From assembly GCA_964383885.1 (NCBI GenBank), contig CAYLHY010000001.1, positions 1 through 40,734 of the forward strand: DNA of 40,734 nt, read 5' to 3'. Shown here piece after piece: positions 1,029 through 40,734 of the stretch. Position 1 is the first letter of the stretch. Each line of letters starts with the position of its first letter. The notes beneath the pieces are model-generated. The model worked only from the letters and a program-made list of their open reading frames with translations, searched no databases and was not told the DNA's origin. Source of the DNA: Candidatus Woesearchaeota archaeon. GTDB taxonomy: Archaea; Nanobdellota; Nanobdellia; Pacearchaeales; GW2011-AR1. The position numbers were made by a program, and so were the translations under genes.

Positions 1029-1029
1029 T

Positions 1030-1455
1030 TTATTTCTTACCTCCTAGTTCTTCTAGATGTTCTTTTATGTATTCTTTCAAATGTGATTTTCCTCTAAAAA
1101 CCTTGTTTCTTATTTTTTTTCTTAATTCTTTAATTTCTTCTGAAGATAATTTCCCTTGTTTTTTAAGTTCTGATAGATAATTTCTTAGTTTTCTAGTGAT
1201 TTTTACATACTCTTGTTTTCTTTTTTTAACTTTTTTTCTTATATTTCCAATGCTTTTTTTTCTGGTTTTTTTCTTGATTTTTCTTCTTCCTTTTATGTTT
1301 TTTACAACTATGGCTTTGTCTTTATACAAGTCTCTAATATCTTGCTTAGTAAGAGCTTCTTTAATATCATTTATTCTCGATTTCACAAATACTATTCTTT
1401 CTTTTCCGACTTTAAGTGTTCTTGCTGCTAATTCTTTTTTCTTTTTTAAATTCAT
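1030..1455 (-). CDS. rpl19e: 50S ribosomal protein eL19
   Basis: MNLKKKKELAARTLKVGKERIVF...IKEALTKQDIRDL matches the L19e N-terminal pattern. GGAGG lies upstream. Canonical position. Confidence 0.9.
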   Translation of the reverse strand: MNLKKKKELAARTLKVGKERIVFVKSRINDIKEALTKQDIRDLYKDKAIVVKNIKGRRKIKKKTRKKSIGNIRKKVKKRKQEYVKITRKLRNYLSELKKQGKLSSEEIKELRKKIRNKVFRGKSHLKEYIKEHLEELGGKK

Positions 1456-1835
1456 TTTTCCTCCTTGCTTCTACTTTCTTTCCTTAAAAATTTTTTAACA
1501 TTCAGATTATAAACCTCGAGATTTTTTTCTTTAGCTTTTTTTGCAATCTCAATTTTTTTCTTTTTTCCAACTTTTCCAATAATTACTATGTCATTTTTCT
1601 TAATTTTTTCAAGTTCTTTCACGTTCTTAACTAACACTGGATTTTTTCCATTTATTTTCCCTCTTGTATTTTTTTCTTTTCTATATCCAAGGCTTACTAC
1701 AGCCGGATACCCTCTTCTCTTTTCCCTCATTTTATTATCTCTTCCAGTAGGTCTTCTCCATACTTGTTTCTTTTTTCTTCTCAATCCTAATTTTGAATAT
1801 CTTTTCCAGGTTCTTCTTAAAAATTTTTTAATCAT
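1452..1835 (-). CDS. rpl32e: 50S ribosomal protein eL32
   Basis: WRRPTGRDNKMREKRRGYPAVVSLGYRKEK is the L32e core. The track start at 1862 is a TTG that overlaps rpl6. The ATG at 1835 (MIKKFLRR) sits 1 nt after the rpl6 stop, so I prefer it. Confidence 0.85.
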   Translation of the reverse strand: MIKKFLRRTWKRYSKLGLRRKKKQVWRRPTGRDNKMREKRRGYPAVVSLGYRKEKNTRGKINGKNPVLVKNVKELEKIKKNDIVIIGKVGKKKKIEIAKKAKEKNLEVYNLNVKKFLRKESRSKEEK

Positions 1836-1836
1836 T

Positions 1837-2391
1837 TTAGATTTCTTTACCTGCCTTTTCAATTATGTAAATGCCATCTTGAAATATTCTTCTATCTCTC
1901 ATTCTTATTTTAGTGCATCTTTCAAGAACTGCAGCTGCTTGCCCTGCAATTTCTTTATCAATAGATTTAATTGTAATTATGTCTTTATTAACTTCAACTT
2001 CTGCTTTTTCAGGAATTTCACATTCTCTTGGAGTTTTTTCTCCAAGGAAATTTTTAATAATCACTTTATTCCCTGCAACTTCAACATTAATTGGAAAATG
2101 ACTGAAAACCACTTTTAATTTGTATTCAAATTTTTTCTGCACTCCTTTAATCATATTGTTAATATGAGCAGTTAAAGTGTTAGTCATTTTTTTCTCTCTT
2201 TTTGTTGATTTTTTATTTCCAATAATTAATTTATTGTCTTTTTTTTCAAGGTCTAAATTAAAAACTTTGAAAATTCTTTTATTTTCTCCTTCTGGACCTT
2301 TTACTGTTATTATTAAATTATTGTCTTTTTTTTCAAAATTAATTTCAACACCTTCAGGAATTTCAATCCCTCTAAAAAATTCTTTTTTCAT
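1837..2391 (-). CDS. rpl6: 50S ribosomal protein uL6
   Basis: GIEIPEGVEINFEKKDNNLIITVKGPEGENKRIF is the L6 N-terminal pattern. The ATG at 2391 (MKKEFFRG) is 1 nt after the rps8 stop. The track start at 2409 is a TTG. Confidence 0.9.
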   Translation of the reverse strand: MKKEFFRGIEIPEGVEINFEKKDNNLIITVKGPEGENKRIFKVFNLDLEKKDNKLIIGNKKSTKREKKMTNTLTAHINNMIKGVQKKFEYKLKVVFSHFPINVEVAGNKVIIKNFLGEKTPRECEIPEKAEVEVNKDIITIKSIDKEIAGQAAAVLERCTKIRMRDRRIFQDGIYIIEKAGKEI

Positions 2392-2392
2392 T

Positions 2393-2767
2393 TTAATAAA
2401 AATATGCAATCAAGCACCCTCCTATTTTTTCTTCAAAAGCTTCTTTATGTGTCATTAATCCTTTGTTTGTAGAAACAATCAAAATTCCTATGTCTCTTGC
2501 TGGAAGATATCTTCTTCTGTATTTTTCAATTTGCTCTTTTTTAACAGTAAATCTAGGTTTAATTGCTTTACATTCAGATAAATCACCTATTGTTACTTCC
2601 ACACTTCTTCCCTGTATTTTGTATTTTTTTACTGCTCCTTCTTGTTTCATTATTTTAAGAATCTCAATTAAAAGATTAGAGATTCTGTTTATTTTCACAG
2701 TTTCTTTTCCAGCTCTGACTGCGTTTTTTATCATATTCAATCCGTCTGCAACTACATCTTGTGACAT
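2393..2767 (-). CDS. rps8: 30S ribosomal protein uS8
   Basis: DVVADGLNMIKNAVRAGKETVKI...LLIEILKIMKQEGAVKKY follows the S8 pattern. GGAGGG lies upstream. Operon position fits. Confidence 0.9.
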   Translation of the reverse strand: MSQDVVADGLNMIKNAVRAGKETVKINRISNLLIEILKIMKQEGAVKKYKIQGRSVEVTIGDLSECKAIKPRFTVKKEQIEKYRRRYLPARDIGILIVSTNKGLMTHKEAFEEKIGGCLIAYFY

Positions 2768-2776
2768 TTTTCCCTC

Positions 2777-3007
2777 CTAACTGTATTTTTTAAATCCAAT
2801 TTCTTCAGCAATTTCTCTAAAACACTGTCTGCATAAATTTAATCCATAACTGCTTATATGCGCTCCAAATCTTCCACATCTTTCGCATTTTTTCGCAGCA
2901 ATACCTGTTTTTCTTTCTTTTGGTTTGTTGTGTTTTAGAAACTTCTTTTTAATTTCAGGTTTATTTTTAATCTGCTTTAATATTTTTTTCCAATCACTCG
3001 CTGTCAT
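2777..3007 (-). CDS. rps14: 30S ribosomal protein uS14 (zinc-ribbon type)
   Basis: CERCGR...[22 protein letters not shown] is the C-terminal Zn-type S14 signature. About 20 extra basic N-terminal residues compared with the typical archaeal form. Confidence 0.9.
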
Positions 3008-3008
3008 T

Positions 3009-3527
3009 TTATCTGAATTGAGTATTAAAGTTATCCTCCATAAATTTAATTATCTCTTCTTTAGTAACCATTTGCCTTTTAGGAATTTTTCCTCTTTTTT
3101 GTTTTTTTATTTTCACTCTTTTGCCTGCTCTTTTAAACACAACTGTTACATCCAATCCCATAACTCCTATTTCCCTCTGATATTCTATTCCTGGAATATC
3201 AAGATACTCTTTAATTCCAAAAGAAAAATGATTTGTTTTTATCTGCTTTTTCTTAAGAGTATTGTCAATTGCAGCAAGCATTTTTTTTAAAATTTCTTCA
3301 GGATTTTTTCTTATTGTAACCATAGCACCAATTTCCAATCCCGGCCTTATGCTAAAAGAAGGAATTCTTTTTTTTGCTTTTGTTTTTACAGGCTTTTTAT
3401 TGCTGAGAAAAGCCAATAGTTTTACACCTCTCTCTAAGTCTTCTCCAGTTCCACTTACACTTAATATCATCTTTTCAATTTTTATCTTTCTCATTGGGTT
3501 TTCTTTATTTATATTCTCTTTGTCCAT
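3009..3527 (-). CDS. rpl5: 50S ribosomal protein uL5
   Basis: [29 protein letters not shown]...[30 protein letters not shown] follows the L5 pattern. Operon position fits. Confidence 0.9.
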
Positions 3528-3537
3528 TTTTTTCTAT

Positions 3538-4185
3538 TCATTCCACCACCATTATTTGTTTAATTAAGACATTGATTTTTTTATCATCAGTTTCTATTTC
3601 AGCCATTTTAAGTTCATTGTTTATTCCTTTTATTACTCCTTTTTTTCCAGAGTGTTTTCCGCTTATAATAATGGCTTTTGAGTTTTCTTTTAATGGAAGG
3701 CACTTCAAAATCTTTTTTTTCTTGAAATCCACTATTACAGAATCATTAACCTTGCATTTTAAATCTGACAAATAATTTCTGCCATCACTTAAATTTAACT
3801 GAACTTTTTTTCCTTTGAGTATTTTTTTATTAATGATTTTAGCTATTTTTTCATTTAATTTTTCTTTTACTTCTTCAACATCAAATTTTCCATGAGTGTT
3901 TAAGATTAATTGATAACAAGTATTTGAAGGAACAATAGTTATTTTATCGAATAATTGTATTCCTGCTCTTTCATCTTTTGCAGGATTTCCATTTACAAGA
4001 ATGTTCTTGTTGTGAATTGCTATTTTAACTTCTTTTCTATTTTGAGCTATTTTCAAAATATCTCTCAATAAAATCAATAATGGAATCCCTTGTTTAACAG
4101 CAAACCTAGGCCTGACTATGTATTTTGTTCCTTTTCTTGGAATAGGCCAATTTTTTGGTATTTTTTGTCTTTTTAAGTGGCTCAT
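3538..4185 (-). CDS. rps4e: 30S ribosomal protein eS4
   Basis: [25 protein letters not shown] is the S4e N-terminus. GGAGG lies upstream. Confidence 0.9.
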
Positions 4186-4631
4186 TTTTCCTCCTTAGTT
4201 TTTTTAATTTCCTTTTCAGTCTCTTTACTTTTTTTAACTTCTTTTTCTTGCTTCTCTGGTTTAATTTGTTTTATTCTTTTTTTATCTTCTAAATTCAACT
4301 CAATTATTTGAAGATTTGACGCTCTTAATGGAACATTAACTTTAGAACCATCTTGTTTTTTAGTTTGTATTCCTTCCACGAAAATCTTTCCATATTTAAC
4401 TTTAACATCAATAACTTTTCCTGTTTTCTTTTTGAATTTTCCCCTCATTATTTTAACTACATCTCCTTTTCTTACTGGAATATTTCTTTTTGAATATTTT
4501 TTTCTTAATTCTTTAGACAGATTCACACTTATGAATTTTCTCTTTAAATGCAACGGAGCATTCGCTAAAAATTTTCTTTGTTTTCTTGGTTGTTTACTTG
4601 ATTTCCATGATGTTGAAAATTCTTTTTTCAT
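4182..4631 (-). CDS. rpl24: 50S ribosomal protein uL24
   Basis: [62 protein letters not shown] is the L24 core. The ATG at 4631 (MKKEFSTSW) is 1 nt after the rpl14 stop. The longer track ORF running to 4736 overlaps rpl14 and is rejected. Confidence 0.88.
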
Positions 4632-4632
4632 T

Positions 4633-5034
4633 TTAATATACAATTGAAGCAATTTTAGCAACTTGAGGCCATCTTTCTGAAACCTCTCTTGCAATTGGTC
4701 CTTTAATTTGTGTTCCTTTTGGATTGCCTTTATCATCTTTTAATATAACAACTGCATTGTCTTCAAAAGCTATTCTTTCTCCTGTTAATCTTCTGTAAGG
4801 TTTTTTCTGTCTTATAACAACAGCATCAAAAACTTTCCCTTTCATATCTGGGACTCCTTTTTTAACGCTTACTTTAACCCAATCTGCTATTTTAGCAGAG
4901 ATTTGTTTTCCTTTTTTTGCCTTTGATTTTTTAACTCCGATTATTTTTACTATTTTAGCCCCGCTATTGTCAGATGCTATTACCATTGAACCCAAATTCA
5001 ATCCTTCTGTTGCTTTTGCGCTTATTGCTTTCAT
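4633..5034 (-). CDS. rpl14: 50S ribosomal protein uL14
   Basis: DNSGAK...[44 protein letters not shown]...[21 protein letters not shown] is the L14 signature. Confidence 0.92.
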
Positions 5035-5037
5035 TTT

Positions 5038-5379
5038 CTATTTTTCACCTGCATCTTTAATTTTTTTAGTTACAATGAAATGGATGATTTTACTTAAAGG
5101 TCTACATTCTCTAACTTGAATTAAATCTCCTATGTTGATTTCTTTTTCAAATTCTTCAGGAAGCCTGGCATGAATTCGTGTTTTAAATCTAGCGTATCTT
5201 TCATATTTTCTCATATAAACCATTCTTTCAAACTCAATTGTTACTCTTTTATGGAATTTTCTTATTACTCTTCCTTCAAAAGTCCTTCCTCTAGGATTGA
5301 TTTTTTTTAACTTGCTTCCAGCTTCAGCTATTTTGGATTTTTCCATCTTTCTTTCTGTTTCTTTTTTTTCTTTTGCCAT
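5038..5379 (-). CDS. rps17: 30S ribosomal protein uS17
   Basis: GRTFEGRVIRKFHKRVTIEFERMVYMRKYERYARFKTRIHARLP...GDLIQVRECRPLSKIIHFIV is the S17 core. I prefer the ATG at 5379 (MAKEKKE), which does not overlap SUI1. An ATG at 5433 remains possible. Confidence 0.85.
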   Translation of the reverse strand: MAKEKKETERKMEKSKIAEAGSKLKKINPRGRTFEGRVIRKFHKRVTIEFERMVYMRKYERYARFKTRIHARLPEEFEKEINIGDLIQVRECRPLSKIIHFIVTKKIKDAGEK

Positions 5380-5410
5380 TTTTTCTAGGGTTTTTACAGG
5401 TTTATGGGAA

Positions 5411-5710
5411 TTATTCTTCAATAGAGTTTTCATCAAATCCCATTTTTACAAGGATTTGCTTGATTTTTTTTGTGTGGTCTCCTTGCAACTCTATTGTGTT
5501 GTCTTTATATGTTCCTCCACATGCAAGCTCATTTTTAAGAGCTTTTGCAATTTTTTTGATATTGATTCCTTTGTCAAATCCACTGACAAGAGTAACAATC
5601 TTTCCGTATCTTTTTTTATCTGTTGTTACCCTTATTCTTTGCGAACTCTTCGCAAGATCTTCCCATTCTATTGCCTGCATAGGCAACCCTGTTTTTGGAT
5701 CTATTTCCAT
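5411..5710 (-). CDS. sui1: Translation initiation factor aIF1 / SUI1
   Basis: IRVTTDKKRYGKIVTLVSGFDKGINIKKIAKALKNELACGGTYKDNTIELQGDHTKKIKQILVKMGF is the SUI1 fold signature. It lies between rpl29 and rps17, as in other archaea. Confidence 0.88.
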   Translation of the reverse strand: MEIDPKTGLPMQAIEWEDLAKSSQRIRVTTDKKRYGKIVTLVSGFDKGINIKKIAKALKNELACGGTYKDNTIELQGDHTKKIKQILVKMGFDENSIEE

Positions 5711-5712
5711 AG

Positions 5713-5916
5713 TTATTTTTTCTTCAACTCCTCTGATTTATTTTCAGATTTGTTGATTGTAAGTATTCTTGATATAATCTTTTTTATTTCCCTTGTTCTT
5801 GCTCCTTTTTTTGACATTGTTTGAGATTTTATTAGTTCTATTTTTAACTCTTTTAGCTTTTTGTTTCTTTCTTCTTTACTCATGTTTTTTATGTCTTTTG
5901 CCCTTAAAGTTGCCAT
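5713..5916 (-). CDS. rpl29: 50S ribosomal protein uL29
   Basis: LRAKDIKNMSKEERNKKLKELKIELIK...REIKKIISRILT follows the L29 pattern. Operon position fits. Confidence 0.88.
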   Translation of the reverse strand: MATLRAKDIKNMSKEERNKKLKELKIELIKSQTMSKKGARTREIKKIISRILTINKSENKSEELKKK

Positions 5917-5918
5917 TT

Positions 5919-6605
5919 TTATTTGGTTTTTGTTTTAGTTTTTTTAGATTTTTTAGTTTCAGTTTTTTGTATTTCTAGTTCTGCTTCATTTTTCTTAATC
6001 TTGCTGATCATTTCTTCATTTACCTCTATTTTGTCTAGTAGTTTTGCATCAGGAGCTAATATGCTTACTCTTATTCCAATTGTTCCAGGCTTAGTTTCTG
6101 CTCTTGATTGCGCCCTGTCAACAACTTTTGCAGCATCTCCTGTTTTTTTTAAATATCCTTGAGCAAATCTCCATTGTTTAGCTCTTGCACCTGGAAGCTT
6201 CCCATGAAGTCTTATTTCTGCTCCAAGTGCTCCAGCATCCATTATTCTTTGAAGAGTTCTGTAAGCAATAACCTTAAATCTAATTGGCCCGAATCTTTCT
6301 AATCCTAATGCAATCTCATCAGCCATTAATTGAGCATTAAACTCTGGTTTAGTAATTTCATCAATTTCAATATGAGGGTTTTCTAATTTGAATCTTGTTT
6401 TTAAGACATTAGTTAATTCACTTATTTTCTCTCCTTTTCTTCCAATTACTAATCCTGGTTTGTGAGTAGAAACAATTATTTTTTCTCCAACAGGCGTATA
6501 AACTATTTTAACTTCACTTACTTTTCCTTTTCCTAATTCTCCTTTGATATACTCTCTAACAGCAAATTCATCTTTCTTGAATTTTACAGATTTTCTCTCT
6601 TCCAT
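5919..6605 (-). CDS. rps3: 30S ribosomal protein uS3
   Basis: KH-domain region KPGLVIGRKGEKISELT plus DEIALGLERFGPIRFKVIAYRTLQRIMDAGALGAEI. Lys-rich C-terminal tail. Confidence 0.9.
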   Translation of the reverse strand: MEERKSVKFKKDEFAVREYIKGELGKGKVSEVKIVYTPVGEKIIVSTHKPGLVIGRKGEKISELTNVLKTRFKLENPHIEIDEITKPEFNAQLMADEIALGLERFGPIRFKVIAYRTLQRIMDAGALGAEIRLHGKLPGARAKQWRFAQGYLKKTGDAAKVVDRAQSRAETKPGTIGIRVSILAPDAKLLDKIEVNEEMISKIKKNEAELEIQKTETKKSKKTKTKTK

Positions 6606-14245: not shown

Positions 14246-14368
14246 GCCTCCGTCGCATAGTGGTATTGCACTCGGCTTGAGAGTGAAGCTTCGCTTCCTG
14301 CTCGCAACGAAGTTTCGTCACGAGACCGAGGCCCTTTGGGCTCGCAGGTTCGATTCCTGCCGGAGGCG
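14246..14368 (+). tRNA. tRNA-Ser(UGA) with a 43-nt intron at the canonical 37/38 site (intron about 14282-14324)
   Basis: Hand fold:
- acceptor GCCTCCG/CGGAGGC, discriminator G;
- D stem GCA/TGC;
- anticodon stem CTCGG/CCGAG, loop CT-TGA-GA after intron removal;
- long variable arm GCCCTTTGGGC (class II tRNA, consistent with Ser);
- T arm GCAGG-TTCGATT-CCTGC.
The intron forms a long hairpin, and two AG|A 3-nt bulges flank a 4-position central helix (bulge-helix-bulge). A GAGA duplication at both junctions leaves the exact cut ambiguous by a few nt. Confidence 0.85.
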
Positions 14369-18353: not shown

Positions 18354-18374
18354 TTGCTCTTTTTTCAATTATCT

Positions 18375-18725
18375 ATGGAACTTGTAGCACTGCTTTCTTC
18401 AGGAAAAGGAACCTGGGCGCAGATATCAGGATTAATGACTTACGGAGAATGGGAAAAAATAATTCTTCTTGGAGATGATTTTGCCAAAGATTTCAAACAC
18501 AATAAAAAATTTGAATTTATTAAAATTAATTTAAATCAGAGAATTAAAGATTTAAAAGAAGAAATATCAAAAAAATTAAAGGGAAAAATTAATGGAACTG
18601 AAGTAGCATTAAGCATAGCAAGCGGAAATGGAAAAGAACACATGGCATTAATTTCAGCTCTCATCAATCTTCCTGTTGGAATAAGATTCGCAGCACTAAC
18701 AAAAGAAGGTGTTATTGATTTGTAA
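18375..18725 (+). CDS. Hypothetical small soluble protein (116 aa)
   Basis: ATG at 18375 (MELVALLSSGKGTW...). The track start at 18354 is a TTG lying inside the promoter. Alternating beta/alpha-like pattern with two Gly-rich loops. Family not recognised. Confidence 0.55.
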   Translation: MELVALLSSGKGTWAQISGLMTYGEWEKIILLGDDFAKDFKHNKKFEFIKINLNQRIKDLKEEISKKLKGKINGTEVALSIASGNGKEHMALISALINLPVGIRFAALTKEGVIDL

Positions 18726-27686: not shown

Positions 27687-27707
27687 TTCTTGAAAAAATA
27701 CTTGTTT

Positions 27708-28400
27708 ATGATAAAAAAATTATTTATTCCTGTAGAGTATAATTTTAAATATGAAGAAATTGAAAAAATTAAATCAAAACTTTTAAAGAAATTCAAGGAA
27801 TTAAAAACTTTAAAAAAATCTAATGTAGCTTTAGTTTATTCTATTCAATTTAGGAATTTAGCTGATGAAATAAAAAAAACTCTGGAAAAAAATACAAAAA
27901 TAAAGATTTTCAGGCAGATTTTAGGATGCACTCCTTCTAAATCCTTTAAGTCAGTTGATGTTATTATTCTTATTAGCAATGGAAGATTTCATGCTGTTTC
28001 TTTGGCTTATGAAACAAAACTTCCTGTTTATTTAATTGAAATTTCAGATTCAAATTTAAAAATAACTAAAATCTCTAAAAAAGACACAGAAATAATTGAA
28101 AAAAAACAAAAAGCATCTTATGTCAAATTTCTTAATTCAAAAAATATAGGAATTATTGTTTCATTAAAACCTGGGCAGAATAAAATTAAAAAAGCTTTTG
28201 AATTGAAAAAACAACTGCAAAAGCAAAATAAAATCCCTTATTTATTTTTATGCAATAATATTAATTTTAATGAATTTGAAAATTTTTCTGGAATTGAATT
28301 TTGGATAAACACTGCGTGTCCAAGGCTGGACATAGATTTTAGAAAAATGAACTTAAATGTTATTAATCTAAATGATTTGAAAGTTGATAAATCAAATTAA
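27708..28400 (+). CDS. dph2: Dph2-like diphthamide synthesis enzyme (2-(3-amino-3-carboxypropyl)histidine synthase), unusually short
   Basis: ILGCTPS..., DVIILISNGRFHAVSLA, and WINTACPRL are Dph2-like blocks. Three Cys lie in separate blocks, as expected for the 4Fe-4S ligands. I prefer the ATG at 27708; the track start at 27690 is a TTG. About 230 aa, against my recollection of roughly 330-340 aa for archaeal Dph2. Confidence 0.6.
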   Translation: MIKKLFIPVEYNFKYEEIEKIKSKLLKKFKELKTLKKSNVALVYSIQFRNLADEIKKTLEKNTKIKIFRQILGCTPSKSFKSVDVIILISNGRFHAVSLAYETKLPVYLIEISDSNLKITKISKKDTEIIEKKQKASYVKFLNSKNIGIIVSLKPGQNKIKKAFELKKQLQKQNKIPYLFLCNNINFNEFENFSGIEFWINTACPRLDIDFRKMNLNVINLNDLKVDKSN

Positions 28401-28774
28401 AGCTTAGCCATAGCAAAAACTGTTTTTATTGCAACTATTATTGTCGCAGGGATAAATAAAACAAGCAGAGCAGAAAAAGCAGAACTAACAACATTCACTA
28501 AACCAATTCCAATTAAACTTTCTCTCACACTCTCCATTCCAAACTTGCTTATTATTATTAAAATAGCCCCAATTAATAAAAAAGTTTGGGAGTCTTTTCC
28601 TGAAGTAATCATACTTCCAACTATCACTCCTAAAATCAATAGTATTATATAAATAGGTCCGCTGTAAAGCTTTAAAACTCCTATAAAAGGAGTAGATAAA
28701 CCTATTATCACTGCTAAAATAATTCCAATTAAAAAAGCCCAAGCAGCTACAGAATTTTCTCTTGATCTTAGCAT
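28397..28774 (-). CDS. Hypothetical small membrane protein (4 TM)
   Basis: Four hydrophobic helices, an ATG start, and a correctly spaced TATA. Confidence 0.55.
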   Translation of the reverse strand: MLRSRENSVAAWAFLIGIILAVIIGLSTPFIGVLKLYSGPIYIILLILGVIVGSMITSGKDSQTFLLIGAILIIISKFGMESVRESLIGIGLVNVVSSAFSALLVLFIPATIIVAIKTVFAMAKL

Positions 28775-28875: not shown

Positions 28876-30468
28876 ATGGAAAAAAATTTACTTAAAAAAA
28901 TTTTAGGACTTTTCATAATAATAGCAAGCATGACTTTTGTCAGCGCAGCAACTACTTTTAGTGTTTCTCCTTTAACTCTTACTTTTACTCCTTCAGATAA
29001 TTCTGAAAGCTTTACAATTACTAACCTTGGTTCAAGTCCATTATCTGTTGATTTAAGTCTGCCTACTATTAACGGCATTACTTTCACTGCAAGCGGACAA
29101 ACTTCTGACATAGACCCTTCAAATTCAAGTGTTATTACTATTGAAGCATCTGATATTGACTTCACTGAAATGGAGTTTAATGAAGTTTTAACAGGAGACT
29201 TAATTATCACTGATTCTTCAAATAGTTCTGAGACAGAAATCATTAAAATTGAAATCTCAAAAAATGAGTTTTGCGATTATGGAGATCCTGGAAATGACAT
29301 AAGAGTTGAGATTAAAGATATAACTAATAATGGCATAGGAGATGATGATAAATGGTATCCTTTAGATGAAATTGAAGTTAAGGTAAAAGTTGAAAATAAA
29401 GGAAATGAAGACCTTAAAGATGTAAGCCTTGAGTGGGGGCTTTATGACAAAGATTCTGAAAAATGGATTATTGAAGTTGATGAAGAAGATGAATTTGATT
29501 TAGATGAAGATGATGATGAAACTCTAACTTTTTCATTTACTCTTGATAATGGTGATTTAGATATAGACATTGATGAATTAGAGGATTCAGATTATGTTCT
29601 TTATGTTAGAGCTACTGGGGAGCTTAAAGATTCAGAAGAAATTATTTGTGATTCTGATTCAGACGAAGTTGATATAAATGTTGAAAACGATTATGTTATT
29701 CTTAGTGATATTAAATTAACAGGAGAAACTTTCTGCGGAAGCGTTGTTCAATTAACAGCAAAAATCTGGAATATTGGAGATGATGATCAAGATGATGTTG
29801 AAATAAAAATATTCAGCAAGGAATTGGAAATTAATGAAAGAGTTGAAGTTGGAGATATTGATTCTTTTGATGATAAAAAACTTAGTTTTGAATTTCAAAT
29901 CCCTAAAGGAATAGATGAAAAAATCTATCCTTTAACTTTAGAAGTTTATGACGAGGATGGAGACCTTTATAAGAATTCAGAGGACGATGAATCTGTTTTC
30001 ACTGTTTTATTAAATGTAAGCGGAAATTGTGTAGTAATTCCTCAAGCAAAGATTTTTGCAAGCCTTGAATCAGGAGGAAAAGCAGGAGAAGAAATGAAAA
30101 TAAAAGCTACTATTACAAATGAAGATTCAGTTTTAAAAACTTACACTATTGAAGCAAGTGATTATTCTTCATGGGCAGAACTAATAGATATAATCCCTAA
30201 TGCAGTAACTTTGGGGCCTGGCCAAGCTCAGGATGTTGTCTTAACTTTTAATATTAAAGAAGATGTTGCAGACACTCAAACATTTAATCTTCTTGTAAAA
30301 ACAGAAAAAGGAATCAAAACCCAGCCAGTTGAAGTTTTAGTTGAAACAGGATTCTCTCTTTCAAGATTATTTAAAGGAGAAAATACATATTTATGGGCTC
30401 TTGCTTCTCTTAATGTTCTTTTAATTTTAATAATTATAATAGTTGCAATAAAAGTTGCAAGAAGATAA
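28876..30468 (+). CDS. Secreted, very acidic surface protein with CARDB/Ig-like repeats and a C-terminal TM + KVARR tail (candidate sortase-type substrate)
   Basis: Signal peptide MEKNLLKKILGLFIIIASMTFVSAATTF. Repeated beta-sandwich-like blocks: VKVKVENKGNEDLKDVSLEWGLYD and LTAKIWNIGDDDQDDVEIKIFS. Acidic D/E runs. The extreme C-terminus is ...GENTYLWALASLNVLLILIIIIVAIKVARR. I prefer the ATG at 28876; the track start at 28855 is a GTG. Confidence 0.65.
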   Translation: MEKNLLKKILGLFIIIASMTFVSAATTFSVSPLTLTFTPSDNSESFTITNLGSSPLSVDLSLPTINGITFTASGQTSDIDPSNSSVITIEASDIDFTEMEFNEVLTGDLIITDSSNSSETEIIKIEISKNEFCDYGDPGNDIRVEIKDITNNGIGDDDKWYPLDEIEVKVKVENKGNEDLKDVSLEWGLYDKDSEKWIIEVDEEDEFDLDEDDDETLTFSFTLDNGDLDIDIDELEDSDYVLYVRATGELKDSEEIICDSDSDEVDINVENDYVILSDIKLTGETFCGSVVQLTAKIWNIGDDDQDDVEIKIFSKELEINERVEVGDIDSFDDKKLSFEFQIPKGIDEKIYPLTLEVYDEDGDLYKNSEDDESVFTVLLNVSGNCVVIPQAKIFASLESGGKAGEEMKIKATITNEDSVLKTYTIEASDYSSWAELIDIIPNAVTLGPGQAQDVVLTFNIKEDVADTQTFNLLVKTEKGIKTQPVEVLVETGFSLSRLFKGENTYLWALASLNVLLILIIIIVAIKVARR

Positions 30469-30580
30469 AAATAATTCTAATTAGAAAATAAAATTAAAAT
30501 AAAAATTTAAAATGCTTTTCTATGAATTAATTAAAGAGATTTTAAGGTTTAGTGTATTTGTTTTTAATTCTTTTGATTAA

Positions 30581-30588
30581 TTTAATAA
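30581..30588 (+). promoter_or_regulatory. TATA-like box for the leaderless archaeosortase-like gene
   Basis: TTTAATAA with 22 nt before the ATG at 30611. Confidence 0.4.
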
Positions 30589-30610
30589 ATATTCTTTTTC
30601 TTAATTATTC

Positions 30611-31177
30611 ATGAAATTATTTCAAAAATTTCAAAGATTAAAACTAAAAACTTCTCAATTAGATATTTTTAAAATTTTTTTTAGATATTTAATAATTTTT
30701 GTATCAGGATTATCAGAACTTTATATTTACTATTTAATTTTTACTCCTTTAACTGTTTATTTAGTTTATTTTTTTCTTAAGATTTTTGCAGGAATTTTTA
30801 ATTTTAATGTTCTTCTTGTGAATAATGTTTTTTTTCTAAAAAATTACTCTATAGAGATTATTAAGGCATGCGTAGGAGGTTCAGCATATTTTCTTTTATT
30901 TGCATTAAATCTTTCTATTCCTTTTGAATTTAAAAAAAGACTGAAAGCTTTAGGATTTTCTTTTTCAGTTCTTTTATTATTTAATGTTTTTAGAATCTTA
31001 ATTCTTATTGCTGTGCTTTTTTTAGGAATGTCTTTTTTCAATGAAATTCACAGAATCTTTTGGTATTTTCTCAATATACTGGCAGTAGCTTTAATATGGT
31101 TAGCTGAAATTAAGATTTTTAAAATAAAAGAAATCCCTGTTTATTCTGATTTAAAGTTTTTTTATAAAAAATTATAA
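30611..31177 (+). CDS. Miniature exosortase/archaeosortase-family-like polytopic membrane protein
   Basis: 188 aa with about 5 TM helices. There is an ordered set of Cys (IIKACVGGSAYF), Arg (LLFNVFRILILI, 41 residues after the Cys) and His (FNEIHRIFWYF), each within or next to a TM helix. That matches my recollection of the conserved Cys/Arg/His layout of the exosortase/archaeosortase catalytic region. It lies adjacent to a protein with a TM + basic C-terminal tail. Confidence 0.5.
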   Translation: MKLFQKFQRLKLKTSQLDIFKIFFRYLIIFVSGLSELYIYYLIFTPLTVYLVYFFLKIFAGIFNFNVLLVNNVFFLKNYSIEIIKACVGGSAYFLLFALNLSIPFEFKKRLKALGFSFSVLLLFNVFRILILIAVLFLGMSFFNEIHRIFWYFLNILAVALIWLAEIKIFKIKEIPVYSDLKFFYKKL

Positions 31178-31201: not shown

Positions 31202-31678
31202 TCAAATTGAATAAATTCCCAGAGTTCCTAAAAAAATAATTATTCCAGCTAAAGCTACTCCTGATGCAATAGCCATAATGCTTTTTTTTCTTTCTAATCC
31301 TAAAATCCATGATAATAAACATCCGCTCCATGCTCCTGTTCCAGGAAGAGGTATTGCGACAAAAACTGCTAAAGCAAGAAATCCTTTTTCATTGTATTTT
31401 TTTTCAAATTTATCTACTTTTTTTTGAATTTTTTTTAAATATTTATTGAATAAATATCTGTAAATTTTAATTTCCATAAATTTATCATGAAGATTATCTA
31501 AAAAAAAGAAAATAACAAATATCATTAAAATATTTATTAAAACTATTAAAAGAAAAATTAAAAATACAGGAATACCAGATTCCTTTGCAAAACTTAATGC
31601 CAAAGGCAAACCAGCTCTAAGCTCAGTAACAGGCATAACAGTAAGAATTATTGAATAAATTAATTTTGAAATTTCCAT
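31202..31678 (-). CDS. COG2426 / 'small multidrug export'-family membrane protein
   Basis: MPVTELRAGLPLA near the N-terminus and AIPLPGTGAWSG near the C-terminus are the two hallmark blocks of this family. Overlaps the upstream gene by 19 nt. Confidence 0.65.
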   Translation of the reverse strand: MEISKLIYSIILTVMPVTELRAGLPLALSFAKESGIPVFLIFLLIVLINILMIFVIFFFLDNLHDKFMEIKIYRYLFNKYLKKIQKKVDKFEKKYNEKGFLALAVFVAIPLPGTGAWSGCLLSWILGLERKKSIMAIASGVALAGIIIFLGTLGIYSI

Positions 31679-32421
31679 TCTATATTGTTTGATTCATAGT
31701 ATTTTACAAAAATCTCAGTCATAAGCCTTTCTATAACTTTTAATATCTCGCAGTTGTTTACATTAAGCTCATAACATGCTTTTCCTATTTGATTTATCTC
31801 AGACTTATCTGATTTTTTAACATTAACAAACATATATCTTCCGTAAGCATCACAGGATGCATTTTCATCTTTCACAACTTTAATTCCTAATGCTTTTAAA
31901 TTTAATAAATTAATAACAGCTATTCCTTCATCCCCTTCACAATCAAATTCATCTGACATGTTTAAAACTAATCTGTATTTTTCATCATTGAATTTAATTC
32001 CAAAATTAATTCCATCCTCATTGAAACTCTCATTAAAAATAAACGGAATTTCTTCATCAAGTTTTTCTGGATTATTTCTTAAATAAATATTATATGCCCT
32101 TATTTTTCCTTCATAAGTAACTGGAAAAGGAACCCTGTAAAAAATAAGTTTTCCTTCTTTTACAACTTCTCCATTAATTCCTCTGTATTCAAAATATCTT
32201 CCTGAATTAAGTAAGTATATTATCACAAAAATTAATATCACTAATGCTGCTAAAACAATTAGAACAGTTTTTAAAATATGGTTATATTTTTTTAATTCTT
32301 CTTTGCTTGCTTGTTTTTTTTCAATCTCTCCGCAAACTGTCTTTGTTTTTTCTTTTCCTTTTTTTTCAATTTCAAAAGTCTCGCATACTTTTTCTTTTGA
32401 TTTTTTATTTTTTTTAGGCAT
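31660..32421 (-). CDS. Hypothetical type-II anchored extracellular protein (basic N-tail, 1 TM, Cys-containing ectodomain)
   Basis: K/E-rich cytoplasmic tail, TM helix LKTVLIVLAALVILIFVIIYLL, and an ectodomain with 4 Cys after the TM helix. Shows weak similarity to the next gene upstream. Confidence 0.55.
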   Translation of the reverse strand: MPKKNKKSKEKVCETFEIEKKGKEKTKTVCGEIEKKQASKEELKKYNHILKTVLIVLAALVILIFVIIYLLNSGRYFEYRGINGEVVKEGKLIFYRVPFPVTYEGKIRAYNIYLRNNPEKLDEEIPFIFNESFNEDGINFGIKFNDEKYRLVLNMSDEFDCEGDEGIAVINLLNLKALGIKVVKDENASCDAYGRYMFVNVKKSDKSEINQIGKACYELNVNNCEILKVIERLMTEIFVKYYESNNIEWKFQN

Positions 32422-32512: not shown

Positions 32513-33118
32513 CTAATCAATTCCTAAAATTTTAAATAAAAACTCATCACTAACATTAATTAAATCAGATTTTGGAGCTTGAATAAATACGCAATTATTT
32601 TCCTGCCTTATATTAGTAAAGTTGCTTTCTTGAATTATAATAAAATTATTATCGCAAGTTTTTATAGGATAATCACCTTTACAATTAAGAGAATAATTTG
32701 AATTCAAGCTTGTAAAATTTATAGAACTTTCATTGAGGCATGCAGGCTGTATTCTTTCAACAAAAACATTTAAATTATTATAGATTTCAGCAGAAGCCAA
32801 GTCATCTTCTGATTGAATATACAATGGTTCATCATAATAATAATTAAGAGGATTTACAAAACTATTAATCTCAGCTACTTGAAGAGGATTGTATCTAAAA
32901 GCAAATTGAAAACCATTAATTTCTGCAATCCAGTAATTATTTTGATTAATAAAATCTATTCCATTGTAAACAATTTTTTCTTTTCTGCTTAGTCTGTCAT
33001 TATTAATCATAGCATATCCTAAAATACTCAGAGAAAGCATTCCTATTAAAATAATTCCTGCAATGATTTGATTAAATCTTTTGTTGTTTTTTGATTCTGT
33101 TATGCTTCTTAACTTCAT
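32513..33118 (-). CDS. Hypothetical N-terminally anchored extracellular protein (Cys-containing)
   Basis: TM helix IIAGIILIGMLSLSILGYAMI. Ectodomain with 4 Cys and many NxS/T sequons. TATA-like box 22 nt upstream. Confidence 0.55.
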   Translation of the reverse strand: MKLRSITESKNNKRFNQIIAGIILIGMLSLSILGYAMINNDRLSRKEKIVYNGIDFINQNNYWIAEINGFQFAFRYNPLQVAEINSFVNPLNYYYDEPLYIQSEDDLASAEIYNNLNVFVERIQPACLNESSINFTSLNSNYSLNCKGDYPIKTCDNNFIIIQESNFTNIRQENNCVFIQAPKSDLINVSDEFLFKILGID

Positions 33119-33229: not shown

Positions 33230-35560
33230 TTATTCTACAACGAGTTCAGCACTTGTTGCTCCAGTTCCAATGTATTTCTTTCCAACACTTGTGTCTACTG
33301 TTTGAGTTGTTAGGTATGTTGCAGCAGCAACTGTGTCTGCAGCTTCATAACCTGCAACTAATAGTGCTGTCTTTGAACTGTCGTAAGGACTCTCGACACT
33401 TTGTATCAAGAATTGTCCAGTTCCCACACCTGTAGCAGATGTGAATTCAGCACCACAGTATGAACCACCAAGTATTGTAGCAGCAACTGAGTTAATGCAG
33501 CTTCCACCAACAACAATTAAGTTCTTGTCGCTTACTGAGCTAACTTCACTGTCTTTTACAACAATGTTGCCAAGTCCGTCGCCTTTTGTCAAAGTAACAC
33601 TTGGAGCAGTTACATATACATCAGCGTAGGACTCTTCTCCATGATAAGTGATTGTCGCCCAGTCTTGATCTCCACCAGTGTCATAAACAACTTTTGTAGC
33701 AAGGTCAGAGACAACATAAGACTCATAGTCATCAGTATCATCTATTTCATATTCACTGCTTCCAGTATCTACATCACTTACATGAACTTTGTCACTTGTT
33801 CCAGATTCACCTAAAGTTACATTGAAAGTTTTTCCTTTTGCTAGATTTTCATTTCTATCTTCTTCTGCCATGTATAGATAGAAACTATCATAACCATGTC
33901 CAGCTGTGTTTTGCCAGACTCCAGCATCAGAAACATTAATTTCACCTTTCAATCCTGTAGAGTTAACAACAGTGTGTGGAAGATAAATCTTCAATCCTTC
34001 TTTAGTGTAAAGTGTATTGAAACTACCTCCACTACTTATGTTAAATGTAACCCATTCGTTTGAACCAACATCGTAGATTGAATCTACAGTCAATATAAGA
34101 CTTCCAATGGAACAAGTGTCTCCTTCATTAAGATGTTCACAAACGTCGTCTCCAGTAACTTCATTCTTAATTGTTGTTCTGTTATCATCTTCGTGTTGGC
34201 TTACACTGGCTGATAACAAGTAAGACTCTCCTTCTGAAGTTGCATTCCATGAAGCAACAAACCACCTGTCATTGTTGGTTTCATTAAAAGTAAGCTGTGA
34301 ACCAGACGAGGTTACTAGCTTATTATTTGAATCTTTACCTATTCCTACAAATTCTCCTGTAGAATTTGCATACAGTAGGTAAATGTTCGCTACTCCATCT
34401 TTGATTGGAGCTTCAAGCTTAATTCTATCACTTCCATCATTTTTAATGATGGTTTCTTCTTCAGCAGGGAAGTTCATTCCTCCCATGCTTAATTTCACAG
34501 CTTCAAATCCAGGCATAAGAAGCTCACTATCTGGAGTTACAAATGCTTCATCATCAGTAGTCCACTCAAGAGTTATTTTGTCAAGCTTTCCATTGCTTTG
34601 ACTTAAATAACCTTTGATTTCTTCAATAGTGTCATCATTTAATTCTATTGAAGAACCGTCAGTTATTTTTAATTTACCTGAACCCAAGCTGATTTCAACT
34701 GAACTCACTGTTCCTTGTTTTGACAGATATATAAGTTCTTTGACACCTACATAACTACCATCACTTAATTTCATGGTTTGGCCTTCTTCAAGTCCCTTTA
34801 TGTCTTCACCATCAATGGTCAAATATGCCTTACTTTCTGATATAGTTCGTACATAAACACTTTTTCCTTGAACAGTCTTAGTTTCACCTTCTGTGATCAA
34901 TGCACTTGAAGCAGAATCAAGAAGGGTTGTTGAATTTGCAGATGTACTGCTGTTTACAACATCTAGTATGTAATACTCCTTACCCATTAGAGTGAGTGTA
35001 GTTGTTTCTAAGGCATCTGGTGTGAAATCAGGGTTTGTAGTGAAGTCCAATGTATAGTTTAGGACATGAGTGCTACCAGGAAGCCTGATTCCTATGGTAG
35101 GTGTATCCTCTTTGTAATCTGAATCTGAAAAATGAGTCAGATTAAGATTACTTCCTAAAACTATCTTTTGAGTGAAATCATATTCTTCATTGTTGTCATC
35201 TAGGTATGTTCCATCTGCTAAAAGATTTGGTAGGTTTTCGTCTGTCAAAGACACAACAAAAACATCTTTTGCACTGTCACCTAGATTAAATTTATCTGAA
35301 GATCTTTCTAACTTCACTTTATCCCCTTCTCCTGCAACAGCAGAAGCTCCACCAGTGTAGCTTTCAGATAAATCAGTCTGAATGCTTGTAGCCTGGACAA
35401 AGTCACTGCTATCAACTCCTACTCCTGTACCATAGACTATTGCTACATCAGCTGAACTTCCAGAAACAAATGGTGCTGGATAGTTAGCTGCAGCAACAAC
35501 ACCCATAGCCATTAGAGCAGTTGAAGCAAGCGCTGTAATTTTTTTGAATGAAAATTTCAT
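33230..35560 (-). CDS. S-layer protein (Methanococcales-type S_layer_N / S_layer_C architecture)
   Basis: Signal peptide MKFSFKKITALASTALMAMGVVAAA, then NYPAPFVSGSSADVAIVYGTG. The C-terminal block is NLIVVGGSCINSVAATILGG...KTALLVAGYEAADTVAAATYL. These N- and C-terminal blocks resemble archaeal S-layer proteins of the slmr/slmv type. The protein is T/S/G/D/V-rich, has many N-x-S/T sequons, and its codon usage is visibly G/C-richer than its neighbours. No C-terminal TM. Confidence 0.75.
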   Translation of the reverse strand: MKFSFKKITALASTALMAMGVVAAANYPAPFVSGSSADVAIVYGTGVGVDSSDFVQATSIQTDLSESYTGGASAVAGEGDKVKLERSSDKFNLGDSAKDVFVVSLTDENLPNLLADGTYLDDNNEEYDFTQKIVLGSNLNLTHFSDSDYKEDTPTIGIRLPGSTHVLNYTLDFTTNPDFTPDALETTTLTLMGKEYYILDVVNSSTSANSTTLLDSASSALITEGETKTVQGKSVYVRTISESKAYLTIDGEDIKGLEEGQTMKLSDGSYVGVKELIYLSKQGTVSSVEISLGSGKLKITDGSSIELNDDTIEEIKGYLSQSNGKLDKITLEWTTDDEAFVTPDSELLMPGFEAVKLSMGGMNFPAEEETIIKNDGSDRIKLEAPIKDGVANIYLLYANSTGEFVGIGKDSNNKLVTSSGSQLTFNETNNDRWFVASWNATSEGESYLLSASVSQHEDDNRTTIKNEVTGDDVCEHLNEGDTCSIGSLILTVDSIYDVGSNEWVTFNISSGGSFNTLYTKEGLKIYLPHTVVNSTGLKGEINVSDAGVWQNTAGHGYDSFYLYMAEEDRNENLAKGKTFNVTLGESGTSDKVHVSDVDTGSSEYEIDDTDDYESYVVSDLATKVVYDTGGDQDWATITYHGEESYADVYVTAPSVTLTKGDGLGNIVVKDSEVSSVSDKNLIVVGGSCINSVAATILGGSYCGAEFTSATGVGTGQFLIQSVESPYDSSKTALLVAGYEAADTVAAATYLTTQTVDTSVGKKYIGTGATSAELVVE

Positions 35561-38934: not shown

Positions 38935-40734
38935 TTAATCTAGTGGTTTTATTATTGCTGAACATTTATTAGGAGCAGGCCTGTTTCCGTATTCATCCTG
39001 ACATTTAATATAGAATTTTGTCTTAGTGCTCCAAGTTGTGAAATGACTGTTTTCTTCTCCTGATGTCATTGGCAAGCCATCTTCAAATAAATATCCGCAA
39101 TCCTGAACATCATAGACGCATTTTGCAGGTTCATTTGTAATTATTTTTAGATAATTTTCTTCTTTATAAGCTCTTGTTATAATTGGAGGTTCTGAATCAG
39201 ATTCAACTTCAAAGCTGATTTTTTTAGTGTCTGAATTTCCTCCAACATCCACACATCTTATGTAATATTCATACTCTCCTTCTGGAAGATACAAGTCTGT
39301 AGAGTGAGTGTAAGAAGCTGTGTTGAAAAATTCTATGTTAATGTTATTTTCATCTTCTCCATAATAGCATATAGATTCTCCTTCATTGTATCCTGCAGAA
39401 GTTTCAACTTTCAATGTTACTTTTACAGATTCAGTTGAATCTTTTATAGTTGTGTCGTTTGGTTCTACGCTGTCTATATATAACGGCCTTGTTCCTATTA
39501 TTGTGAATTCATAAGACTCTGAATTAGTATTTCTCTGACTTTCTGAATTTGTTCCTTCTAATTGAGGCTGATCCTTGCATCTAAAGTAAAATTTGTTTTC
39601 TTGATTGTCTTTTATTCCTGTAAGAGTGGTTTTGCAGACATAGACATTTCGGTTATTTACAATTCTGAAGTCTCCTATATTTTGAGCATCAGAACAATCC
39701 ATTTCATTTGGCATGTTTTCATAGCTTTCATCATTTGTACTCCATTTGCAATTACTTGGTTCATTTATGTAGAGTTCTAAATCAAGAGTATCTTGATTAA
39801 ATGAAATAGGAACATTATTCCTTATGTTAGTTCCAACAATAAGAGGTGGAGTTGTATCTGGACCAGGGTCTACGCAGTATTTAAATACAAAATTAGCTTC
39901 ATTAGAATTACCATTTGCATCTTGACATTTAATGTAGATTGTTTCTTGTCCATTGTTTCTTAATACTAATCCTTCACTTCTTGTATTATTTGGTCCAGGA
40001 AGACTCATTGTTATTGAATGATTATATTTGAAGTTGCCTCCTCCAAGGTCAAACCTCATTTCATCAAAACTTCTTTTTCTAAAATAATCTGCTTTACATT
40101 TTGCAGGTTCATCTAATTTTATTCCAAATCTTAGAGGAGTGAATGCAGGAGCACATCCATCTCCTGAACGAGAATTTTCATAAACAACTATGACTCCTCT
40201 GTCAGGAGGAGAGACTGCATTATCAGGAGTATAAGAATATCCATCTAATAAAAATTCTGGATTAGCTTCAATTACAGGAGGTTTAACGTCATTAGGATTA
40301 ATCCAGACACACATTGCTTCCCCAGAAGCTTCATCGTTTAATAATTCACATGCTTGTCCAAGACTCTTACACTGATAAATACTGCATGGAAGTTCTTGTT
40401 TATTGCATAATTCACAGTTTTTTCCTTTAGTTTGAGCTTGCCACGGCTTGCAATCAAATTCTATAATCCTATAATAAACTTCTTCATATTCATGAGCATA
40501 CCAATAAAGAGCAAAAGCCATTCCAATACCAAATCCCCACCACCCAGCAGCTGTAGAACTTTTTCCAAAATATCCTTTCGCAAGGGTGTAGGTAAATTTC
40601 CCCATACCTAACCCCCAACCAGCTGCTTTACTTAGTGCATTTACTTCATTTTCTTCTAATCCCAATGTTGGACCAAGCCATTTAACTGCATAATATCCTG
40701 CAACATACCATTGCACACCTGAGAAAAAAGCATC
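38935..40734 (-). CDS. Large membrane-anchored extracellular protein with a Cys knot and four Cys-framed repeats (N-terminus beyond the window)
   Basis: The reading frame stays open upstream of the track's GTG at 40716 through to base 40734 (DAFFSG-VQWY...), so the gene is edge-truncated. It has Gly/aromatic hydrophobic segments (AAGWWGFGIGMAFALYWYA). A 7-Cys cluster follows (CKPW...CELCNKQELPCSIYQCKSLGQACELL...MCVW). Then four modules, each ending [FY]Y[FI][KR]C.D..GN. Confidence 0.6.
   Translation of the reverse strand, partial: DAFFSGVQWYVAGYYAVKWLGPTLGLEENEVNALSKAAGWGLGMGKFTYTLAKGYFGKSSTAAGWWGFGIGMAFALYWYAHEYEEVYYRIIEFDCKPWQAQTKGKNCELCNKQELPCSIYQCKSLGQACELLNDEASGEAMCVWINPNDVKPPVIEANPEFLLDGYSYTPDNAVSPPDRGVIVVYENSRSGDGCAPAFTPLRFGIKLDEPAKCKADYFRKRSFDEMRFDLGGGNFKYNHSITMSLPGPNNTRSEGLVLRNNGQETIYIKCQDANGNSNEANFVFKYCVDPGPDTTPPLIVGTNIRNNVPISFNQDTLDLELYINEPSNCKWSTNDESYENMPNEMDCSDAQNIGDFRIVNNRNVYVCKTTLTGIKDNQENKFYFRCKDQPQLEGTNSESQRNTNSESYEFTIIGTRPLYIDSVEPNDTTIKDSTESVKVTLKVETSAGYNEGESICYYGEDENNINIEFFNTASYTHSTDLYLPEGEYEYYIRCVDVGGNSDTKKISFEVESDSEPPIITRAYKEENYLKIITNEPAKCVYDVQDCGYLFEDGLPMTSGEENSHFTTWSTKTKFYIKCQDEYGNRPAPNKCSAIIKPLD

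Follow-up and report, generated by a model that had tools for sequence, protein, structure and literature searches.

We analysed a 40,734-nt stretch of archaeal DNA (contig CAYLHY010000001.1, positions 1 to 40,734; hereafter the window) and found in it two neighbouring genes, one for a small sorting enzyme, pacearchaeosortase, and one for its putative target, an acidic surface protein of the PACE-CTERM family. We consider it very likely that, in this DPANN archaeon of the Pacearchaeota/Woesearchaeota type (about 28% GC), the pacearchaeosortase has this protein as its single dedicated target and acts on the C-terminal tail of the target in a manner similar to the archaeosortase ArtA. This view is based on the membership of both proteins in curated families, the invariance of a Cys, an Arg and a His in the enzyme, the conservation and exclusivity of the tail, and the reciprocal linkage of the two genes.

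An earlier note on this DNA had inferred an archaeosortase-type enzyme and a dedicated target from the raw sequence. This inference was correct, which gives the locus its main value, as a calibration. The earlier note also took the signal to be unrecognised. This part did not hold, for the signal or for the pair: NCBIfam already contains both families (NF033505 and NF033506), and NCBI uses these names for proteins of many metagenome-assembled genomes (MAGs). Judged by these models, the system is already known as a product of NCBIfam curation, and the window locus is a regular member of it. The present analysis adds the actual conserved signature of the tail, the exclusivity of the tail, the near-universal reciprocal linkage of the two genes, and a conserved envelope island in which an anchor-less S-layer protein is also encoded. 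Experimental work on the pair could yield a minimal model for archaeosortase recognition, consisting of a 188-aa enzyme and one substrate, and could help to explain how DPANN archaea form their cell surface.

A minimal archaeosortase

The enzyme gene (30611..31177, + strand) and the target gene upstream are both located where the earlier note had placed them, and the 188-aa enzyme carries the motifs KAC87VGG, NVFR128IL and NEIH147RIF. In an NCBIfam scan, this protein matched NF033505, 'pacearchaeosortase', with 169.1 bits (E-value 8.5e-50; curated cutoff 80). Residues 20-187 aligned with model positions 2-165 of 167, which is essentially the full length of the model. The scan also returned TIGR04178, the exosortase/archaeosortase signature, with 38 bits (cutoff 23; E-value 1.5e-9); here residues 81-165 aligned with model positions 1-91 of 97, and this stretch includes C87, R128 and H147. 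By these matches, the protein belongs to the exosortase/archaeosortase superfamily, as the earlier note had supposed, and is a minimal, polytopic representative. Pfam gave no match for it at E-values up to 1, and only a few of its homologues have a precomputed match to PF09721.

We collected 179 homologues of the enzyme, many of which are named pacearchaeosortase by NCBI in MAGs of Pacearchaeota, Nanoarchaeota and Woesearchaeota. When one genome per species was scanned, 454 genomes encoded a relative, and the best 80 of these loci come nearly all from MAGs of the same three groups. Three contigs with a pacearchaeosortase locus are labelled 'uncultured Vicingus sp.' (L015), 'Patescibacteria group bacterium' (L034) and 'Candidatus Thorarchaeota archaeon' (P0004); these are probably mis-binned DPANN contigs.

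A conserved Cys, Arg and His are the hallmark of the exosortases and archaeosortases (PMC4343526, citing Haft 2012). We aligned the window protein with 120 homologues that are 42-97% identical. Cys87 (codon TGC, 30869..30871, + strand), Arg128 (codon AGA, 30992..30994, + strand) and His147 (codon CAC, 31049..31051, + strand) were each kept in 121/121 sequences, so that the order of residues pointed out in the earlier note is conserved throughout. N125 and I129 were likewise invariant (121/121) and form with Arg128 the motif N125-x-x-R128-I129. As the catalytic-type residues are invariant, the enzyme is under selection. We propose that Cys87 is the catalytic nucleophile and that His147 may be the third residue of active-site type.

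The AlphaFold2 (AF2) model of the enzyme (predicted local distance difference test score, pLDDT, 86.7; predicted template modelling score, pTM, 0.78) is that of an all-helical membrane protein plus one beta-hairpin. Its helices span residues 15-63, 85-101, 107-137, 143-169 and 176-187, and the hairpin spans residues 67-82. C87 starts the helix 85-101, R128 is within 107-137 and H147 starts 143-169. Basic residues are concentrated at the N-terminus, in the 102-113 loop (K108, K109, R110, K112) and at the Lys-rich C-terminus. By the positive-inside rule, these three regions would be cytoplasmic and C87, R128 (in the outer third of its helix) and H147 would be in the outer half of the membrane. 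The part of the gene at 30611-30760 includes residues 25-48, where R25-Y26 and F-T-P46-L-T48 are invariant in the subfamily; these motifs fall within a predicted helix of 49 residues and outside the TIGR04178 core.

The earlier note regarded the enzyme as a miniature beside the larger ArtA-type enzymes of about 300 aa. The small size is not unusual, as several curated models are similarly small: ArtE (TIGR04124) has 153 positions, ArtB (TIGR04144) 156, XrtH (TIGR04177) 158, XrtM (TIGR04300) 150 and heimdallarchaeosortase (NF045528) 199. The window enzyme aligns weakly with such minimal sortase models, in a collinear manner and over their full length; for instance, ArtE positions 8-151 of 153 align with window residues 18-170. 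Its scores are far below the cutoffs of all of them (ArtE 25.3 bits vs 95, ArtB 9.6 vs 150, XrtH 20.8 vs 86, XrtM 17.1 vs 125, heimdallarchaeosortase 29.1 vs 130). On this evidence from sequence models, pacearchaeosortase is a subfamily separate from these five, with N-terminal invariant motifs of its own.

The target, its tail and its linkage to the enzyme

The target gene (28876..30468, + strand) encodes a protein of 530 aa if translation begins at ATG 28876. The mechanically predicted open reading frame (ORF) begins at GTG 28855 and has 537 aa, with the same end at 30468. The ATG is the likelier start because the database contains an identical 530-aa protein (P0121) and because there is a TTTATAAA box about 40 nt upstream of the ATG. 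In the NCBIfam scan, the protein matched NF033506, 'PACE-CTERM-PROT, putative S-layer protein', with 453.2 bits (E-value 1.6e-135; cutoff 110), and the alignment (model positions 118-627 of 627) reached the last residue of the model. The E-values of this match and of the enzyme's match to NF033505 place both well out of the reach of chance.

The target begins with a putative Sec-type signal peptide, MEKNLLKKILGLFIIIASMTFVSA (28876..28947, + strand), which was read from the sequence; AF2 places a helix at residues 3-19, and cleavage would follow VSA. The protein is very acidic (isoelectric point, pI, 4.05; Asp plus Glu 21.7%) and matches CARDB and Ig-like Pfam models. Its AF2 model (pLDDT 86.5) consists of consecutive Ig-like beta-sandwich domains from residue 28 to 490, followed by a single helix at 504-529. 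Thus, the earlier description of a Sec-exported, acidic, Ig/CARDB-like protein was accurate. Many of the 217 homologues are named 'putative S-layer protein'. This is NCBI's name; family and structure matches are limited to generic Ig/CARDB/MG domains, and a Foldseek search with the target model returned only generic multi-Ig proteins (TM about 0.2), which neither supports nor refutes a role in the S-layer. Four cysteines (C133, C258, C287 and C385) are invariant across the family and are the sole Cys residues of the window protein; from their conservation, they may form disulfides in the ectodomain. The window protein has only three N-x-S/T sequons.

The last 30 residues of the target form the PACE-CTERM sorting tail, GENTYLWALASLNVLLILIIIIVAIKVARR (30376..30465, + strand; 46 bits and E-value 8e-13 with a hidden Markov model, HMM, of the tail). 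The tail is composed of a conserved signature, N-T-Y-L-W-A-L-A-S-L-N (30382..30414, + strand), a transmembrane (TM) helix and a basic cluster, K-V-A-R-R (30451..30465, + strand). The basic cluster, which has the family consensus [RK]-[VI]-A-R-[RK], is predicted to be the cytoplasmic stop-transfer end. The signature is at the outer start of the helix, and we propose that it is the region of recognition and cleavage. The earlier note had described a tripartite tail of motif, helix and basic cluster, and this architecture stands. The motif was misplaced, in that GFSLSRLFKGENTY, the stretch before the helix, is a mostly variable and poorly conserved linker among the 120 homologues compared, whereas the signature overlaps the start of the helix.

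Column frequencies were calculated from the last 30 residues of the same number of target homologues. The signature has the consensus N-x-Y-[LI]-W-G-I-G-x-L-N, with N at 80%, Y at 83%, W at 90%, G at 72% (A 17%), I at 91%, G at 62% (A 27%), L at 72% and the final N at 95%. Beyond this N, the pattern continues as x-I-L(97%)...I(98%)-I(92%)-x-x-A(94%)-[VI]-[RK]-[VI]-A-R-[RK]. The window signature departs from the consensus at three positions, each with a minority residue (A 17%, L 4%, A 27%), and thus reads YLWALASLN where the consensus reads YLWGIGxLN. There is otherwise no substantive difference between the window proteins and those described by NF033505 and NF033506: they agree in taxonomic setting, gene order and tail, and both window proteins pass the curated cutoffs. 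Judged from the alignment, the conservation of the tail is far above what a generic anchor needs.

The tail is exclusive to the target family. Among window ORFs of at least 60 aa, that of the target alone has a C-terminal TM helix and a basic tail. The 30-position tail HMM was run on the window plus 84 loci (0.89 Mb) and on 80 further loci (0.53 Mb); in both sets it found exactly one ORF per locus, always the cognate protein. When a tail-only profile was searched against 1.84 billion representative proteins (E-values up to 0.001), it found 370 representative proteins, and the tail was always at the extreme C-terminus. Among the 143 new top matches, 134 also matched the ectodomain HMM, the shorter ones being collinear, N-terminally truncated fragments; the remaining nine were fragments of at most 75 aa. 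There was no second architecture bearing the tail among the 134 assessable proteins of the top 143. Because all of these 134 share one body family, the data point to a dedicated system of one enzyme and one target.

A dedicated system would be mistaken if other substrates, with divergent signals missed by the tail profile, were encoded elsewhere in the genome, so that one enzyme served many targets. Coverage consisted of 40.7 kb of the source genome and of 12-kb loci of the others, some tails within the family itself score weakly (for example at loci L003, L084, L015 and L043), and genomes with ArtA carry 1-52 PGF-CTERM proteins (PMC6098224). We nevertheless consider this arrangement quite unlikely: the global search gave one family among its assessable top matches, each locus has one tail ORF, and enzyme and target genes are typically adjacent in systems with a single target, whereas no such adjacency is seen in those with many targets (PMC3237569).

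Dedicated sorting enzymes and their single targets are typically encoded by adjacent genes (PMC3237569), and this is the arrangement in the window. The target gene ends at 30468, 142 nt upstream of the enzyme gene on the same strand. The 142-nt spacer (30469..30610, no strand assigned) is AT-rich and contains several runs of T; a TATA-like TTTAATAAATA precedes the enzyme ATG by about 25 nt. At other loci the spacer ranges from 26 to 2810 nt. A scan of the locus for promoters and terminators of the bacterial type gave counts at or below shuffled expectation, and such a scan is not applicable to archaea.

We examined linkage in both directions. Starting from the enzyme, we used the best 80 of the 454 species-level genome loci. 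Of these, 77 had the target upstream in the same orientation, at a gap of 48-2810 nt; two had it nearby but on the other strand, and one, a single-cell assembly, lacked it. The two genes were therefore linked at 79/80 loci. Starting from the target, we used 80 independent metagenome loci, of which 68 were informative, as 12 contigs end too early. In 65 of the 68, the enzyme gene followed downstream on the same strand, at a median gap of 457 nt, and one further locus had it on the opposite strand, giving linkage at 66/68. This co-occurrence bears out the suggestion in the earlier note that the adjacent acidic protein is the cognate target. The two exceptions (L133:6576-9329 and L158:6261-10769) extend 3.4 kb or more beyond an intact, tail-bearing target and contain no enzyme there. 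In both, recombinase-like and other mobile-looking genes directly follow the target gene, and L158 has a C5-methyltransferase-like gene upstream. As recombinase- or methyltransferase-like genes follow an intact target, these loci suggest insertion rather than loss of the enzyme. They also suggest an integration hotspot right behind the target gene.

These results bear on another explanation, in which the C-terminal helix is an ordinary, permanent stop-transfer anchor, the 188-aa protein acts elsewhere or is an inactive relic, and the two genes are adjacent merely because a reduced genome has kept its gene order. Synteny does extend over the entire neighbourhood, including SepF, prefoldin and the S-layer gene, so adjacency could be inherited gene order, and the pairing is known from sequence data. 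The tail, however, keeps its W, I and N at the frequencies given above across proteins that are just 35-50% identical, and ordinary anchors are not so conserved. This tail, conserved residue by residue, occurs on no other protein family among the assessable top profile matches. The catalytic-type residues of the enzyme are invariant, and NCBIfam curators arrived independently at the same pairing. We therefore reject an ordinary anchor as a very improbable explanation, based on the residue-level conservation of the tail, the invariance of the enzyme and the exclusivity of the tail.

A model for processing of the target

Based on these results and on the analogy with ArtA, we have proposed a model for how pacearchaeosortase would process its target. 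The target would be exported via Sec and its signal peptide removed. Its C-terminal helix would then keep it in the membrane for a time, as a type I protein with KVARR on the cytoplasmic side. C87, R128 and H147 of the enzyme, in the outer half of the membrane, may recognize N-x-Y-[LI]-W-G-I-G-x-L-N in the first turns of the target helix. As the signature forms the outermost turns of the helix and KVARR is inside, enzyme and signature would meet at equal membrane depth. Cys87 would attack a peptide bond within or just before the signature, and the helix and basic tail would be removed, as in the ArtA system. The new C-terminus may then be transferred to an acceptor, for which a membrane lipid is the likeliest candidate, with hydrolytic release as the alternative outcome. 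The mature acidic Ig-repeat protein would stay at the cell surface in the envelope, probably working with an anchor-less S_layer_C-family protein encoded nearby.

The closest characterised parallel is ArtA with its PGF-CTERM targets in Haloferax volcanii. It belongs to the same superfamily and likewise combines a polytopic Cys/Arg enzyme, a tripartite C-terminal signal and a target associated with the cell surface or S-layer. ArtA cuts the signals of PGF-CTERM proteins, and without it no lipid is attached to the C-terminus that the cut creates (PMC6098224, PMC9263693). Its experimentally critical residues are Cys173, Arg214 and Arg253 (PMC9263693). The spacing of Cys173 and Arg214 is 41 residues (PMC9263693), equal to that of Cys87 and Arg128 in the window enzyme. 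The two systems differ in the motif, which is PGF in one and the Pro-free Y-L-W-G-I-G-x-L-N in the other. They also differ in the number of targets, with the range per genome given above for ArtA and one target family here, and in the third residue, which is Arg253 in ArtA and the invariant His147 in pacearchaeosortase. The pair does not belong to the ArtA/PGF-CTERM class: the tail lacks PGF, and there was no ArtA model among NCBIfam matches at E-values up to 1.

Rhombosortase and its GlyGly-CTERM target are also one enzyme and one target encoded by consecutive or nearly consecutive genes (PMC3237569, Haft and Varghese 2011). Rhombosortase, in contrast, is an unrelated rhomboid serine protease. 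For pacearchaeosortase, the dedicated state is a lineage-wide rule and not a special case.

The last step of the model is where a second outcome has to be weighed. Pacearchaeosortase may act only as a sheddase or maturase, which cleaves the tail hydrolytically without transpeptidation to a lipid. The acidic protein would then be released or be held non-covalently, by the S-layer lattice or by divalent cations, and an ectodomain with a pI of 4.05 would suit association through cation bridges. The acceptor itself is hypothetical. Lipid synthesis is commonly missing in DPANN genomes. Genes of the PssA/PssD type, on which lipidation by ArtA relies in Haloferax, did not turn up when 37 of the roughly 48 non-overlapping window ORFs of at least 100 aa were compared with Pfam, a set that excludes about 11 ORFs in 534-6605 and a 123-aa ORF at 18354-18725. 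On the other hand, the Cys/Arg chemistry is of the transpeptidase type, and ArtA, the sole characterised relative, couples cleavage to lipid attachment (PMC6098224, PMC9263693). We take hydrolysis as the only activity to be a serious but rather unlikely alternative and prefer cleavage coupled to anchoring.

Several points weigh against a dedicated, ArtA-like pacearchaeosortase. Many DPANN archaea are without lipid biosynthesis, and for this reason a lipid acceptor is uncertain. A role for His147 is suggested by its conservation, the third critical residue of ArtA being Arg253. As the signature is Pro-free, unlike PGF, PEP and VPXXXP, the position of cleavage is not transferable from ArtA. Tail-bearing proteins were counted in 12-kb loci and by the global profile search, rather than over whole genomes. 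A search of PDB sequences with the family profile found nothing at E-values up to 1, and a Foldseek search of PDB with the AF2 model of the enzyme had a best E-value of 1.7; the matches, to DgkA and PA28, are meaningless. Finally, the family is known from sequence curation: in the literature searched, no paper names or describes pacearchaeosortase or PACE-CTERM, and what it offers on archaeosortases in the context of DPANN or Pacearchaeota is limited to general reviews that are silent on DPANN sortases. A 2018 review lists archaeosortases for a subset of the Euryarchaeota only (PMC6098224).

The envelope island and the rest of the window

The pair is part of a conserved island with the order divergent 125-aa membrane protein, target, enzyme, a variable gene of the small-multidrug-export family, two single-pass proteins and an S_layer_C gene. 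The 125-aa polytopic membrane protein (28397..28774, - strand), which is divergent from the target gene, is present at 50 of the 58 loci with at least 4.5 kb upstream and has no Pfam or NCBIfam family match. Between the sortase and S-layer genes are two single-pass, Cys-containing membrane proteins of 253 aa (31660-32421) and 201 aa (32513-33118), both on the - strand. Neither has a significant match in Pfam or NCBIfam, and homologues occupy the corresponding place in 70/80 and 72/80 loci, respectively. Given this conserved placement, the two proteins, with their Cys-containing ectodomains, are candidate envelope-assembly factors.

The S_layer_C-family protein (776 aa; 33230..35560, - strand) matches PF05124 with 33.5 bits (cutoff 23.9); it carries a signal peptide but lacks a membrane anchor. 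Its gene is 2 kb downstream of the sortase gene and is present at all loci (49/49) that extend 5 kb or more downstream of the sortase. The protein ends in ...GATSAELVVE. It has no C-terminal helix or basic tail and was rejected as a sortase substrate, in agreement with the earlier note. The PF05124 match spans residues 26-751 against a profile of 177 positions, which implies large insertions.

The conserved island supports a role for the target in the envelope, and it suggests that the target tethers or partners the S_layer_C protein. The SlaA/SlaB S-layer of the Sulfolobales, in which an anchor-less outer S-layer protein is encoded near a C-terminally membrane-anchored partner, offers an analogy only (PMC6098224). 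No sequence relationship was seen, SlaB retains its TM anchor, and the Sulfolobales are without archaeosortases (PMC6098224).

A more specific arrangement can be proposed tentatively, and we regard it as possible rather than probable. After processing by the sortase, the PACE-CTERM protein could serve as the membrane tether of a two-component S-layer, pairing with the S_layer_C protein together with the two small membrane proteins. Its processing would depend on a Pro-free, intramembrane W-G-I-G...N signal, a mode of recognition undescribed for archaeosortases. As hosts are the presumed source of lipids for these archaea, anchoring would be to a scavenged lipid or to another acceptor.

The window as a whole is a chromosomal fragment of a DPANN archaeon of this type, with a GC content of 25-34%. 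It carries a ribosomal protein operon and the genes for FtsZ, Spt5, L11, prefoldin, SepF and Dph2, in a gene order shared with distant MAGs. The Dph2-like protein (27690-28400, + strand; 236 aa) is read from a TTG that lies 4 nt behind the SepF stop codon, and it is present at this place in only 26/80 related loci. It matches its Pfam profile only from position 65, and is thus either N-terminally reduced or has a mis-set start. Synteny with other Pacearchaeota stops around 37.4 kb. A 593-aa ORF at 38935-40716 (- strand, GTG start) has only a sub-threshold match to the Ig-like Big_13 and no homologue in related loci. Rfam places a tRNA of 123 nt at 14246-14368 (+ strand; 44.7 bits) that is absent from the ARAGORN output; it is probably an intron-containing archaeal tRNA.

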